Part shown: piece by piece, positions 18,001 through 27,000 of the stretch | Position numbering within the stretch: the stretch's first letter is position 1 | How the letters are laid out: the number at the start of each line of letters is the position of its first letter | NCBI GenBank assembly: GCA_963664825.1 | Contig: OY761614.1 | Span: 1,280,001 to 1,344,000 of the forward strand | DNA: 64,000 nt | Source of the DNA: an uncultured Holophaga sp. | GTDB taxonomy: Bacteria > Acidobacteriota > Holophagae > Holophagales > Holophagaceae | Reading direction: 5' to 3' | Program-made: the position numbers

Positions 18001-21000
18001 GCGGGTGTCGAATCACACTCAGGCTTTTGGGGTCCCACTCGAAGAGCACTGTCGGGATTCCCGAAGCCACCAAATGGCCACTCGGTAGTTCCGCCATGCA
18101 GGAGATCAGCGTACGCTCTGTTCCATGTAGGATTTTCCAGCCCGCCGGTGCAGCCCTGGCGATACCTTGGTGGGTGGCTGCCCACATTGTCCCACTGCGG
18201 TCTCGCCGGATGGACCACACGATGTTCGAAGGCAAGCCACTCTGAGTGTTATAGAAAGTCCAGTTTTCACGACCCAGGAGCTGGTATAGACCGCCTATGC
18301 CTCCGATCCATATTGAGCCTTCCGTGTCCTGGTACAGGGAATAGGCCAACGAGGTGGGCAGACCCTGTTTGAGCGTAATGATGGACCATCGATCCCCATC
18401 AAGGATTTCCACTCGGTCTTTGGAAGGAACCCAAAGGCGGCCCAGGCGGTCCGATAGGAGGCTGGCTCCCCGCCGAGAAAAGCCCTCCTTATTGAATTTC
18501 CTTACAGCAGTAAAAGATGAGCCATTGGAAGGGCGCATCCACAGGTGGCTTGCAGTTCGAGCCCAGAACCTCGACTGCCCATCCAGGGCCAAGGCAACAA
18601 TGCCTTCTTCTCCAAGGCCCTGCTCGCGCTCCCAGCGTTTCCAGCGACACCCGGGAAGCCGCACCACGAGACCGGTTTCCGAGCCCACCCAAAGGGCATC
18701 CCCGGCGACCAGCAGGGCCTGCACGGATCCGAAATGCCAATCCGGCACAGCCGTGAAGCCCGTTTCCCGAGATCCCAAGAAAACGCCCTGGTTGGTGCCA
18801 ACCCAAACCTGCCCCCCGGGAGCCATGGCCAAGGCGTTCACGGCAACCCTCCCGATCTCCCCAGCAGCGCATCGGATCCGGCCTTGATGAAGGTAAGCCA
18901 GGCCCTGATCAGTTCCCAGCCAGAGCGTACCTTCGGACGCGCATGCCAGGGAAAAAACCATGCGCCCCGGCAACCCGTCGTCGAGAGAAAATCGCTGGAA
19001 ATGTTTCCCGTCATAGCGGTACAAGCCATTCGCCGTTCCAACCCATAGGAAACCATCCCGATCCTGGGTCAAGCTCGTGACAACAAGGCTCTCAAGTCCT
19101 TGCTCAATGCCGAAGAAGCGGAAGGGAATGCGTGCAGGTGGCAAGCCCACACCCAACTGCGCAAATGGAATCGGCTGCGAGTCGGGACCACCTGCCATGG
19201 CCAGGCATGAAAGCAGCAGGAGGGACATGGCACGCCTACACCAACGAAAGGCACCGAACAGTCCAACGCTGGATGCCAGGCGTTTCAGCGATCGTTCTGA
19301 GGGGGATTCCATCATTAGGACAAGAGGATTGCTCTGTACATGGACCTGGTTGGTGAGATGACGTTCGGGCAAACCCTTGGGTTGATCATGCCGTGACGGA
19401 TTGGCCTTTGGCGAGGTTTATAGTGCGTCACGATTAAGGGCGTGGCTTGCCGTCCACACTTCGCAAGTAAGGTGCACCTCCCCCAGCGCGATACCTCAGC
19501 GCCGAGGTTCCGGTCTGCGCGGGGCGGCCTTGGGCTTGCCCCAGTAGCTGGTCTCGGCCACGAAGCAGATGTTCTCCAGGTCCGTCACCCGCTCCTGCAT
19601 GCAGTTCTGGGCGTCTGCGATGGCCTGGCCATAGATCGCGGGGCCAATCTCCTTCAGGCAGAAATCCAGGAATTGCCCCGCCCCCAGTTCCCCCAGGTCC
19701 TGGCCATAGGATTCCGAGACGAAGCGCTGGATGCGCTCCTTCAGGCGCTTCTGGGTATCGAGGGGAAGCTTGATTTCCATGGGTCTCCCGGGGCGGGCCT
19801 CAGTGCTTGCCCAGCAGCTGATCCAGTTCAGCATAGGCCAAGTCCAGACCCAGCCTGGCGGCGAGGGCATCGGCCTGGGCGCTGCGGGCGGAGGCCTCGG
19901 CCTCGGCCATCTTGGCCGCGGAGATGAGGCCCGTCTTCTGTTCGTTGGCCGCGATACGGGCCTTCTCCACGTTCAGGGCACAGGCCTCCTCGGCCACCTC
20001 CACCATGAGCCCGGCCGTCTCCACCTTCCTTCGGAGCTTGCCCAGATCGATCTCCACGCGGTTGCGGACCCGACGCTGGTTCTCGGAGGCCTGGCTCACC
20101 ACGGCGGCCCGCTGGCTCACGACCCCGGCCTTCTTGCCCCAATCGAAGATGGACCAGCTGAGGGTGAGGCCCACCGAGGTGGAGTTGTTCCGCAGGAAGG
20201 GCACGCCGTGCTGATAGGTCTGGCGGGCGAAGGCACTGACCTCCGGGATGTACTCGTTCTTCCCGGCCCTGAGGGCGCTGCGGCTCTTGTCCAGGGATTC
20301 CTTGACCATGGCCAGCTCGGGATTGCCCTTCAGCGCTTGCTCCAGCAGGACATCCTGGGCAGGCAGGGTGCGGGCCTGGAGTTCCACGGGGGCCAGTTCC
20401 AGGGGCGTATCCAGGGCCTGGCCCAGGAGATCGTTCAGCTCCGAACTGAGGTCGCTGATGGAGGCCTCGGCGGAGAGTTCCTGATGACGGTGCTGGAGGA
20501 GCTGGGCGCGACTGCCGGTCTGGAGCACCTTCAGCGCATTGCCCGCCTTCACAGCCACCCGGGCATCCTGGTCCAGGAGCTGAGCGGCCTGGACGCCGGA
20601 GCGAGCGGCCTCCAGTTTCGCCTGGGCGATGAGCAGGCCCATGTAGACCTGGCGGGTCTTGAAGGCGATATCGGCCTCCATCTTCCGCAGCTCGGCCTGG
20701 GACAAGCGCTCTTCGGCCGAGGCCACCTTGTTGCCCTGGTGGATCTTGAAGAGCTGGGTGAGGGGCTGGCCCAGGGTGATGTTCTGGAGGTAGATGGTAT
20801 TGTCCCCCTGGCCCAGGGACGTCTCCTGGGTCGGAAAGGCGCCCAGGCCCGGGATGGTGCCCAGGGCGCCCTTGGGGATCTTCACCAGCTGGTCGCCCGT
20901 GGTATTGACCCACAGGGCATCGGCCCCCAGCTGGGGCAGGTAATCGGCCCACGCTGTGCGGCGCTTGGCCTGGGCCTCCTCCACCTTGGCCCTCGAGATC

Positions 21001-24000: not shown

Positions 24001-27000
24001 TGGAACTTGAAGATGGAGGCCTCGAGGGTCTTGGTGACCTGTTTCTCCACCTGCTCGGAGGTGGCTCCCGGATAGGCGGCCATCACCAGACCCGTGCGGA
24101 TGGTGATGGTGGGGTCCTCGGTGCGGGGCATGAACATGAGGGAACGGATGCCCACCGAAACGAGCATCACCGCCAGGATGGCGGTCAGGGTGGGATAGCG
24201 GAGGCAGGCCTTGATCATCTTCTGCATGGCCTACTTCCCGGCTTCGGCGAGCATGCCGTTGCGAAGATTGTGCTGACCGGCCACCACGAGGAATTCGTCG
24301 CCCTTGAGGCCCGAGCGGATCTGGATATCCCGACCCAGCACCACGCCCACCTCCACGCGCTTGGAGAAGACACGCTTCTGGTCGGGGTAGTAATGGAAGA
24401 CCAGGGTGGCGCCCTGGGGATCCCGGACGATGGCTTCCGCGGGCACGACGGTCATATCGAGCCTGTGGGTGCCCGTGATGGAGACCTCGGCCACCATGCC
24501 CACCTTGAGTTCCCGGGCGGGGTTGGGGACGCTGATGCGGGTCATGTAGGTGCGGGTAGCAGGATCGGCGGAGATGTTGACCACCTTCACGGTTCCCTTG
24601 AAGGCCTGGCCCGGCAGGGCGGGGAGCGTGACGGTGGCCGACTGGCCCACCTTCACCAGGCGGATATCGGTCTCGGGCACGCCCACGCTGACCTCGATGG
24701 GGTCGAGGGTGGCGATTTCGAAGACGGGCTGGCCTGGGGCCGCCATGGCCCCCGGCTCGATCAGGCGCTTGGCGATGTAGCCTCCGATGGGCGCCACCAG
24801 GCGGGCATCGGCCAGGTTCTTCCGCGCGACGCCCTCCCCTGCCAAGGCCTGCTGGAGCTGCTGATGGGAAGCATCCCGGGCCGCCCTGAATTTGGCAAAA
24901 TCGTTGGGGGCGAGGCTCTGGGTGTCGAAGAGCTGCTGCATGCGCTGGAATTCCCCCTCGGCCCGGGTGGCGGCGGCCCGGGCGGCTTCCGTCTGGGCAT
25001 GGGCGGCTTCCAGGCCATGAGTGAGGTTCACCGCGTCGAGCAAGGCCAGGACCTGGCCTTTCTTGACCGGCTCACCCTCCCGGGGGAACACCTGAAGGGC
25101 CCGGCCCGGCACCAGGAAGGCCACCATGGAAGAGGCCCCGGGAGAGGAGAGGGTCCCACTCACGGAGACCCTTTCCAGTTCCTGGATCCTGCGGGGTTGG
25201 TTCACGCCGATGGTGACGGCGGGGGCTTCCAGGCTGGGGTTCCCCGAGCGGCCGCAGGCCACCAGCAGGAGCAGGGAGAGGGGGAGGATCGGGCAACGGG
25301 ACATGGAATTCCTCGCAGGAGGCAATGGAAGGGATGGGTTTCGAGTGGGCAGGAACAACGGGGTCTGGATCAGGGTGTGGCCCCAGGCTGGGATTCCAGC
25401 CCGACCAACAGGACCGGGGGCAGGCCCACCATCTTGTCGGCCATGATCGTGAGCGTCCGGAGGGTGGTATCGAAATCCTCGGGGCTGATATTGCGGGATA
25501 GAAGGGCGACATATTTCTCGACCTTCGCGTAGATGGACTCCCGGCATTGACGGCCCTTGGGAGTCGAGAAGACCCTCTTGGCCCGCTTGTCGTCCACGGA
25601 TTGTTCGCGCTTCACGAAGCCCTTGGCCTCCATGGACTTCATGGCCTTGGCCGTGGCCGATTTGTCGATGGCCAGCAGGGTGGAGAGCTGCTCCTGGTTG
25701 ATCCCCTCGTTGACCAGGATGGAAACGAGGAAGGCCGATTCCAGGGCGCTCAGGCCCAATTCCAGCACGGAGGCGTTCATGTAATCCAGGGATTGGCGGT
25801 AGACCACACCGAGCACCCGACTGATATGTTCAACTTCCATGGACACCCCGAAGGAATGGTTGACCAGAACCACCATTTTGACGATTTGGTGGTGCTTGTC
25901 AACCATTTCGTCTGCATACCCGAAGGGCCCGCCAGGCGGGCCCTTCTGAGGGGATCCGATCCCAGCTACTCAGCCTTGGGCGCTTCCTTGACCGGCTCCT
26001 GGGGGAGCTTGGGTTCTTCGGCCTTGGCCTTCAGCATATTGAGTTCTCCGAGGGCCTTCTCGAGGGTGATGGCGAGGTATTCCCCTCGCAGGCGCATGGT
26101 CTCCCCTTCCAGGATCTTGCCATCGGGCCCCACCAGGATGGGGCGGGGAATGGTGCTCAGATTCACGGCCTTGAGGAGGGGATCCTTGCTCTCCTTGCCC
26201 AGGAAGACATGGGTCCAGGGCATGGGATGGGCGGCATCGGCACGGAAGGGGATGATGTCTCCGGCCAGATTGTCCAGGCTGAGGCTCAGGATCTCGAAAC
26301 CGGCGTCCTTGTACTTGGCATAGGCCTCGTGGAGCTTGGGCATCTCCTTCACGCAGGGGCCGCACCAGGTGGCCCAGAAATCCACCAGGAGGAGCTTGCC
26401 CTTGAAGGTCTCCAGACTCACGTCCTTGCCATCGAGATCCTTGAAGGTGAAGGCAGGGAAGGCGGTGCCCTTGCCCACATACTTGGCAGGATCCAGCTGC
26501 TTGGCAGACCGGGCGGCGGCCGTGTCCTTGTACTCGGTGATCAGGGTCTGATAGAGGGGCTTCATCTTCTCCGTGTCGCCCACCCGGGAGGCCGCGGCCA
26601 GCTGGTAGAAGAGGGCCAGGGCCCGGACCTCGGGATCGGGGTTCTCCTTGGCCACGACCTCCCGGAACCCTGCATAGGCTTCGTTGCGGCCCGCGGCGGC
26701 AAAGGAGGCGCCCATGATCTGGGGGGACATGGCCCAGTAGGGGCTCGTGGCGGGCAGCTTATCCAGGGCCAGGGCGGCGCCCTCGGCGGGCAGCTTGGCG
26801 CCTAGCGAGCCCAGGCTCAGGTAGCTCATGGCCAGCAGGCTCTGGTTATCGGCGTCCGTCTCGGCGGCCAGATCCTTGGCCAGGGCCTCCAGATCGGCAT
26901 TCCAATCGATCTTCTCCTGGCTCTTGAGGGCGGCGCGGCCCTTGGTCTCCCGGGCCTTGAAGGCCGCGTAGATGGCCTCGCGCTTCACAAGCTGGGCATC

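Follow-up and report, generated by a model that had tools for sequence, protein, structure and literature searches.

A single gene of an uncultured Holophaga sp. (minus strand, 19800..24227 of the window, the 64,000-nucleotide stretch of DNA that was analysed) encodes an RND efflux permease and a TolC-type outer membrane factor (OMF) as one open frame of 1475 codons plus a stop, with no internal stop in the translation. The halves are linked by a joint that has the parts of a signal peptide, keeps these properties among fused homologs and is homologous to the genuine signal peptides of stand-alone OMFs. On sequence and geometry, the best reading of the joint is that it is probably cut by signal peptidase I, such that the pump and its outer-membrane channel would be made as one precursor. 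The features are as follows (a slash marks a predicted cut).

19800..24227, minus strand: whole fused gene (ORF listing, translation, Pfam, NCBIfam)
21180..24227, minus strand: RND permease half, residues 1-1016, MexK/TriC-like (ACR_tran 1-1020/1021; phmmer against PDB)
21159..21176, minus strand: n-region RRRERR, residues 1018-1023, immediately following TM12 (translation, hydropathy)
21123..21158, minus strand: variable-length Gly/Ala/Thr spacer AAGTGAGTGATT, residues 1024-1035 (joint alignment; gap in a related strain)
21093..21122, minus strand: hydrophobic core ALLVLLLVVA, residues 1036-1045, a 13th membrane segment or h-region (hydropathy peak 1033-1051)
21075..21092, minus strand: c-region PTLSSA, residues 1046-1051, with the predicted signal peptidase I site SSA/E at A1051/E1052 (joint sequence)
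19803..21074, minus strand: predicted mature OMF, residues 1052-1475, 424 aa, TolC-type (two OEP repeats; AF2; Foldseek)
24231..25547, minus strand: periplasmic adaptor (MFP), listed ORF of 438 aa (TIGR01730 RND_mfp 126-432, E 1.8e-68; HlyD_D23)
25370..25906, minus strand: MarR-family regulator, ORF as listed (Pfam MarR 58-109, E 9.5e-11)

A complete pump and a complete channel in one frame

The preliminary description had proposed a complete RND permease followed in frame by a complete OMF, and the ORF, Pfam and NCBIfam agree on this: Pfam assigns ACR_tran to residues 4-1016 (profile 1-1020/1021, E 4e-186) and OEP to two stretches (best 1294-1473, E 5e-42), while NCBIfam places RND permease models at 7-1016 and the TolC type_I_sec model at 1059-1338. 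The pump half matches the AcrB/AcrD/AcrF model at full length (PF00873, HAE-1-like, MexK/TriC branch), and its leading phmmer matches in the PDB are MexK (E 1e-148 over 14-1023) and TriC (6vej, E 1.7e-136). It scores under the NCBIfam subfamily cut-offs (538 bits vs 1250) and is thus a divergent member. The end-to-end alignment to MexK implies a standard RND topology; a hydropathy scan of the fused protein finds the peak clusters expected of an RND pump and one extra peak at 1033-1051. In the translation, candidate proton-relay residues are those of VVDDAIV in TM4 and an arginine of the TM10 stretch GIVVRNAI. The likeness to MexK/TriC, together with the MarR and TetR regulators encoded near the two gene copies of this genome, suggests hydrophobic or aromatic xenobiotics as substrates.

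The channel half has the hallmarks of the TolC family (PF02321), including two OEP repeats, four barrel strands and long helices. Its AF2 model (pLDDT 91.8) contains four main strands (114-123, 159-170, 344-355 and 363-372, model numbering) and two helices of ~70 residues (173-242 and 380-446). Foldseek aligns the channel half to TolC (7ng9_A, E 2.7e-18, TM 0.78), and TolC, CmeC and OprM lead the 44 PDB matches at E<=0.001.

The preliminary description also mentioned a paralog of the same build and, upstream, genes for an adaptor and for a regulator, and these are borne out. The adaptor stop lies 3 nt ahead of the pump ATG. The adaptor likely starts at Met82 (window 25304), after which LLLLVAC reads as a putative lipoprotein box. 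An MFP homolog ends at most 400 nt upstream of the fused gene in 62 of the 63 related loci with enough flank. The paralog (G000:C1:2290503-2294885, minus strand) is 58% identical to the fused gene over 1-1474, has no stop, carries the same Pfam pair (ACR_tran and OEP) and is preceded by an MFP and a TetR regulator. The paralog joint has a less canonical site (TQA/WC or AWC/E), and the site heuristic described below found none in it.

The joint and its signal-peptide-like properties

The 35-residue joint consists of RRRERR, the Gly/Ala/Thr spacer, ALLVLLLVVA and PTLSSA/E. By RND topology, RRRERR would face the cytoplasm. The spacer is modelled with low confidence (pLDDT <50 at model residues 41-45, AF2), and a related strain (run X6) lacks 12 nt of it, in frame, at 21129. 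The joint combines a positive n-region, an h-region, small residues at -3/-1 and no Pro at +1, as expected of a signal peptidase I substrate; the alternative site, AEA/P, has Pro at +1, a residue that blocks this enzyme. No Cys occurs between residues 1017 and 1060, and the lipobox of the NodT/OprM lipoprotein branch is accordingly absent. A lipobox-like tetrapeptide is found somewhere in the joint of 18/175 homologs, and those inspected sit within the hydrophobic run. No in-frame ATG lies between TM12 and the OMF half of the fused gene; thus, the channel lacks its own start, and its signal, rather than heading a separate polypeptide, is internal, behind residue 1016.

The earlier proposal that almost every relative has a signal-peptide-like joint holds on two measures. 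The n-region is net positive in 106/107 fused homologs, and small residues at -3/-1 are found 2-9 residues past the hydrophobic run in 172/175, with Ala at -1 in 153. Applied to the signal peptides of stand-alone relatives, the same rule, a crude heuristic, identifies 43/53 and leaves 10 genuine ones unrecognised; applied to the pump's own uncleaved helices, it is satisfied by TM1 in 58/176 and by TM7 in 6/176. Few residues were also said to separate the predicted site from the first conserved OMF helix, and this stands: a median of 5 residues separates site and motif in the fused and stand-alone sets alike. Mean identity between family members is 21% in the joint, compared to 87% in TM11-12 and 47% in the OMF half; the letters of the joint are thus free while its properties are kept, as is usual in signal peptides.

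The joint also has counterparts among separate proteins. In a scan of 1.84 billion representatives, stand-alone OMFs of 430-470 aa align to the fused protein down to their residues 4-11, and their signal peptides therefore overlie the joint. These stand-alone relatives have cleavage-type sites a few residues ahead of an LTLxEA motif that they have in common with the fused proteins. The genome encodes two signal peptidase I genes.

Probable processing of the joint and the alternatives

Export of the channel half, cleavage, insertion into the outer membrane and a benefit of the 1:1 ratio are what we infer from these data. The RND half would insert in the inner membrane as a 12-helix pump with a cytoplasmic C-terminus; the Arg-rich patch would remain inside, and the next hydrophobic run would insert as a 13th segment and take the channel half through SecYEG to the periplasm. 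Signal peptidase I would then cut after SSA (A1051), leaving free a TolC-type protein of 424 residues whose mature N-terminus would be normal; this protein may trimerise and be placed in the outer membrane. After the cut, the signal peptide would stay attached to the pump C-terminus as a 13th membrane helix rather than being set free. In this way, two genes, the adaptor and the fused gene, could suffice for a complete tripartite pump, and the ratio of pump to channel would be fixed at 1:1. An extension of this scheme, which is rather unlikely, is that the fusion is a device for assembly in cis: the channel would be freed at the translocon of its own pump and captured as a private duct at 1:1, the 13th helix would be functional, and the repeated independent joins would be the outcome of selection for a biogenesis that is coupled across the two membranes. 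To our knowledge, such a principle has not been described for any envelope-spanning machine.

The hydrophobic segment is needed for topology whether or not the chain is cut, and only the -3/-1 pattern therefore argues for cleavage. It is improbable that the chain remains uncut, with the 13th helix tying the channel half to the pump in a single chain or a non-canonical geometry. The hydrophobic run would anchor the protein equally well, and AF2 draws it as a 19-residue helix (model residues 46-64, protein residues 1031-1049). Against this, the OMF half retains the full TolC fold, barrel strands included, and this fold needs its N-terminus tens of Å off the inner membrane: the mature N-terminus of TolC lies at the equatorial domain, far more than ~35 Å from that membrane, and 5-10 residues, a range that includes the median spacing from site to first OMF helix, can span ~35 Å at most. 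An uncut chain would also leave the small -3/-1 residues without a reason to persist at the frequency noted above, so much higher than at TM7.

A separation of the halves by other means, either an internal translation start that gives the channel its own signal peptide or a different protease, is quite improbable. The stretch GGGAGAGG within the n-region codons could be taken in favour of an internal start, but besides the missing ATG, the only in-frame GTGs are within the hydrophobic core and would yield a product without an n-region, and a Met within the n-region is rare (3/107 homologs). The likelihood that the fusion reflects error or gene decay (i.e., an inconsequential lost stop or an assembly or frameshift artefact) is negligible. 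The genome is one 3.47-Mb contig, and indels can be present in assemblies of this kind; one relative (G074) has the gene interrupted by TAA, and two related loci (L082 and L086) look frameshifted. By contrast, runs of two studies yield contigs that bridge the joint (20502-23013) free of differences and gaps, and one open frame runs across the joint in 76/80 related loci, with 60 loci complete; the fused frame is thus not an assembly slip. The genome also has two copies of the fused gene, and the OMF half combines its level of identity among family members with a confident full fold. As far as sequence allows, error or decay is refuted. A look-up of expression data listed no RNA run holding the fused-gene stretch.

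Spread, origin and relation to known systems

The fusion is present in at least four phyla, and its cultured carriers include Geothrix, Geomonas, Oryzomonas and Trichlorobacter thiogenes. A repeat of the search with the OMF half gave 117 matches (vs the 164 first given); PF00873 and PF02321 are found together in 116 of the 117, and 106 reach a length of 1400 aa or more. In the channel tree, where three rows (P0126, P0143 and P0183) are fragments beginning in TM12 and are not counted as stand-alone, the fused proteins do not form one clade. The best 120 matches to the pump half include the query (row 120) and 119 relatives of 66-87% identity, all of which are fused except one 'partial' record; thus, no close unfused pump relative is found among them. 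The best unfused pumps in 121 genomes of the class are <=33% identical. The P0192 family, the stand-alone OMFs nearest the main fused clade, was considered as a pump-stop-channel ancestor and rejected, as no RND gene lies within 5 kb in 29/29 loci; an MFP-like ORF occurs ~1.6 kb upstream in 5/29.

Operons of the MexAB-OprM type encode these three components in an identical order (adaptor, pump and channel). The solved pumps closest to the pump half belong to MexJK and TriABC of Pseudomonas aeruginosa, systems that borrow channels (OprM and OpmH) encoded elsewhere. The Holophaga gene differs from tripartite RND operons in that pump and channel share one frame and in that the channel signal lies inside this frame, lacks a start codon and would remain on the pump after a cut. 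E. coli TolC and the stand-alone TolC-family proteins of Acidobacteriota (P0164, 'TolC family protein' at NCBI) resemble the fused channel in their two OEP repeats, the lack of a lipobox, a signal of the signal-peptidase-I type and an LTLxEA-like mature start, although E. coli TolC is only distantly similar to the channel half in sequence (E 1e-4). In these stand-alone proteins, the signal does not follow 1016 residues of another protein. A precedent for the arrangement is FbcH, the cytochrome b/c1 polyprotein of Bradyrhizobium japonicum, a membrane polyprotein that is cut at an internal signal peptide. FbcH likewise has a polytopic inner-membrane protein, then an exported protein in frame, with a signal-peptide-like joint; however, both of its products are at the inner membrane, whereas the second product here would reach the outer membrane after a cut that is predicted.

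Tripartite efflux systems are usually regarded as sets of separate proteins (pump, adaptor and channel), and a natural one-chain precursor bears on how an outer-membrane channel meets its inner-membrane partner, and at what ratio. It would be a rare bacterial polyprotein with products bound for different membranes. The fused gene also offers a natural test of signal peptidase I cutting behind a 12-helix protein and a ready system for the study of coupled assembly and stoichiometry. A search of the full-text literature, with TCDB and subscription journals outside its range, found no description of a natural pump-channel fusion. The product names that JGI gives to fused homologs are already 'AcrB/outer membrane protein TolC'. 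At NCBI, the naming of the fused genes stops at 'efflux RND transporter permease subunit'; surveys of OMF genes will consequently undercount channels in these phyla.

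The fused gene and its neighbors

The RND permease (pump half) and the TolC-type outer membrane factor (OMF, channel half) are encoded in one frame, downstream of an adaptor and a regulator, and a second copy of this fusion is present in the genome:

19800..24227, minus strand: fused RND permease-OMF gene, a single open frame of 1475 codons
24231..25547 (listed ORF), minus strand: periplasmic adaptor (MFP; TIGR01730, E 1.8e-68), directly upstream of the fused gene
25370..25906, minus strand: MarR regulator, upstream of the fused gene on the same strand
Contig C1 of this genome, 2290503-2294885: second fused copy (paralog), 58% identical, stop-free, with the same Pfam pair

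Residues 4-1016 of the fused protein cover the full length of the Pfam AcrB/AcrD/AcrF model (profile 1-1020 of 1021, E 4e-186), and the Pfam outer membrane efflux protein model matches twice, with the best stretch at 1294-1473. NCBIfam assigns RND permease models to 7-1016 and TolC type_I_sec to 1059-1338. The preliminary description of a complete pump and channel in one frame thus holds for the window gene, and the paralog has the same architecture, as proposed, on the basis of its identity and both Pfam families. An adaptor and a MarR/TetR-type regulator precede both copies, as was also claimed, with TetR at the paralog. Only 3 nt separate the adaptor stop from the pump ATG. The longest adaptor ORF shares about 180 nt with the MarR ORF; a more likely start of the adaptor is Met82 (window 25304), which is followed by LLLLVAC, a predicted lipoprotein-type box. 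No separate channel gene adjoins the window locus or the paralog locus, and stand-alone channel matches are found near two other RND loci of the same genome. Downstream of the fused gene, on the minus strand, are a histidine kinase of 1085 aa with Reg_prop propeller repeats (16115..19372) and a thermolysin-type (M4) peptidase of 831 aa with a propeptide motif (12752..15247).

The closest solved structure to the pump half is MexK (E 1e-148; 14-1023 aligned to 15-1022), followed by TriC (6vej; E 1.7e-136), MdtB (2e-81) and AcrB (~1e-73). The channel half is distant from E. coli TolC by sequence (E 1e-4). Its fold was predicted for residues 986-1475 from an alignment of 70 relatives (mean pLDDT 91.8; model number + 985 = protein residue). 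In this model, TM12 (helix 4-39) is followed by a floppy loop (41-45, pLDDT <50), a helix (46-64, pLDDT 52-71) and coil. The first TolC-plan repeat consists of short helices, strands 114-123 and 159-170 and a 70-residue helix, and the second of strands 344-355 and 363-372 and a 67-residue helix. A Foldseek search of the PDB gave 44 matches with E<=0.001; TolC of Klebsiella and E. coli, CmeC and OprM come first, at target-based TM-scores of 0.7-0.8 over ~430 aligned columns.

Reality and distribution of the fusion

The fusion is genuine, widespread and recurrent, and it has apparently not been studied. Public-run contigs from two studies span 20502-23013 with 0 differences and 0 gaps and so bridge the joint, although one of these runs may be the assembly's own source. 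A third study contributes a related strain, in whose contig 12 nt are missing at 21129, corresponding to four codons of the Gly/Ala/Thr spacer (21123..21158), in frame; substitutions are scattered as well, and the frame across the joint is intact. With 201 residues across the joint as query, 92 relatives were detected in species-representative genomes, and 80 of them were retained. One open frame crosses the joint in 76/80 of these loci, with the whole protein in 60; the other four are cut by contig ends (2) or apparently frameshifted (2). Contig depth in run X4 spikes to 937 at window 22908..23055, compared to ~10 elsewhere, which is attributed to the highly conserved TM4 region with its DD pair, where RND contigs of other organisms pile up.

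Searched against proteins of 811-2582 aa, the channel half matched 117 clusters, 116 with both Pfam families and 106 of at least 1400 aa. The pump half gave 2876 matches at E<=1e-100; among the best 120 of these (query included), the 119 other proteins are 66-87% identical and all fused except one 'partial' record. Carriers include (i) Acidobacteriota such as Geothrix, Mesoterricola, Holophaga, Paludibaculum and Bryobacteraceae, (ii) Geomonas, Oryzomonas, Trichlorobacter thiogenes, Geobacter sp. AOG1, Syntrophales, Smithella and Desulfobacterales, (iii) Nitrospirota such as Ca. Manganitrophus, Thermodesulfovibrionales and Dissulfurispiraceae, and (iv) Deferribacterales such as Seleniivibrio woodruffii. 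A full single-frame copy is present in at least 17 of 121 genomes from the window's class, and the best unfused pumps in these genomes reach <=33% identity. One further copy of the class (genome G074, C1:2826782-2831189) is broken within the channel half by one TAA near residue 1106-1113, leaving the pump plus joint apart from an open frame of 401 codons; a pseudogene or a sequencing error could explain this.

Across the fused family (proteins P0004-P0393), conservation is much higher in the pump half than in the channel half; Geobacteraceae members share 66-68% identity with the window gene in the pump half and only 40-45% in the channel half. A maximum-likelihood tree of the channel domain (26 fused and 45 stand-alone rows, ~62%-identity representatives out of 166) requires 7 changes of the fused state, at least 5 forced by well-supported branches, with gains and losses of fusion indistinguishable. 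A single fused clade is rejected by an AU test chosen after a first FastTree had been inspected (lnL difference 253, p 1e-69). Thus, fusion was gained or lost on several occasions. The P0219, P0246 and P0254 lineages have joints that are built differently, yet are signal-peptide-like. No RND gene lies beside the stand-alone channels nearest the main fused clade (P0192 family; 0/29 loci, L087-L115), and in 5 of the 29 an adaptor-like ORF is located ~1.6 kb upstream; this suggests that these channels partner another transporter type.

The joint as a retained signal peptide

TM12 is followed by F RRRERR AAGTGAGTGATT ALLVLLLVVA PTLSSA E A PVVKH LTVETAIQGAL: first a patch of positive charge, then a spacer, a hydrophobic core of 10 residues and a Pro six residues ahead of a Ser-x-Ala site; the TolC-family opening helix lies eight residues past this site. 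The next candidate site, after AEA, has Pro at +1, which blocks signal peptidase I. The joint of the window gene has no Cys, hence no lipobox, and its DNA has no in-frame ATG and in-frame GTGs only within the hydrophobic core. The paralog joint ends ...AVATQAWC ESPKP LTL, with less canonical candidate sites after TQA (before W) or AWC (before E).

When the channel half and joint were scored against 1.84 billion representatives (6378 matches at E<=0.001, 137 at E<=1e-30), the best 150 were fused proteins, their fragments and many stand-alone channels of 430-470 aa. Among these, the alignments extend to residues 4-11 of the stand-alone channels, so that their N-terminal signal peptides, such as MKLRIALVALSLAALEA↓AP..LTLEE and ...GIGQAQA↓PMHLTLPEA (arrow, cleavage-type site), overlie the joint. 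On sequence grounds, the joint represents a signal peptide that was retained. Its signal-peptide build, as put forward in the preliminary description, is borne out by this overlap and by conserved properties in relatives. For the latter, the end of the hydrophobic run was located and a site sought 2-9 residues beyond (A/G/S at -1, small or aliphatic at -3, no Pro at +1); the rule is crude, as it misses 10/53 true signal peptides and calls no site in the paralog.

Sites called by this rule (one of 176 fused proteins, without the anchor motif, was dropped from the joint set)
Fused joints: 172/175, strict form 146; A at -1 in 153
N-termini of stand-alone relatives: 43/53, strict form 33
TM1 of the pump (uncleaved): 58/176, strict form 12
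TM7 of the pump (uncleaved): 6/176, strict form 4

The site lies a median of 5 residues from the conserved motif in fused and stand-alone sets alike, and the n-region is net positive in 106/107 fused homologs. For 106 fused proteins, pairwise identity averages 0.47 in the channel half and only 0.21 in the joint, compared to 0.87 in TM11-12; thus, the joint behaves as a signal peptide, with its build kept and its letters free, and not as a helix packed into the pump would.

Proposed export and cleavage

The C-terminus of RND pumps is cytoplasmic; thus, the extra hydrophobic run after TM12 would carry the channel half over the inner membrane, cut or uncut. The mature N-terminus of TolC is in the equatorial domain, about halfway along the 100 Å periplasmic tube of the solved TolC and AcrAB-TolC structures; in the assembled pump, well over 100 Å separate this N-terminus from the inner membrane. 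A linker of 5-10 residues reaches <= ~35 Å. With the barrel strands and full fold kept and the linker this short, the outer membrane would be reachable only if the channel is freed, and a cut is, thus, probably needed. Two genes for signal peptidase I are present in the genome (153 and 75 bits; cut-off 47). Cleavage would leave the signal peptide attached to the pump, where it would form a 13th helix. The reading first proposed, in which the channel half is exported and freed by signal peptidase at the joint (predicted between A1051 and E1052), is the best supported and probably correct.

The system has the same set of parts as the MexAB-OprM-type adaptor-pump-channel operon and is predicted to work alike; it differs in that the pump (MexK/TriC-like) and channel (TolC-type, non-lipoprotein) form one chain and the signal peptide is internal and start-less. 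Among known cases, the nearest precedent for processing of this kind is the Bradyrhizobium cytochrome b/c1 polyprotein. A natural pump-channel fusion is not described in the full-text literature searched (outside TCDB, InterPro and subscription journals) or in passages of a 2021 Chem Rev review, PMC6592562 and a bioRxiv preprint on secretion systems. Automatic JGI product names for the fused proteins read 'AcrB/outer membrane protein TolC'.
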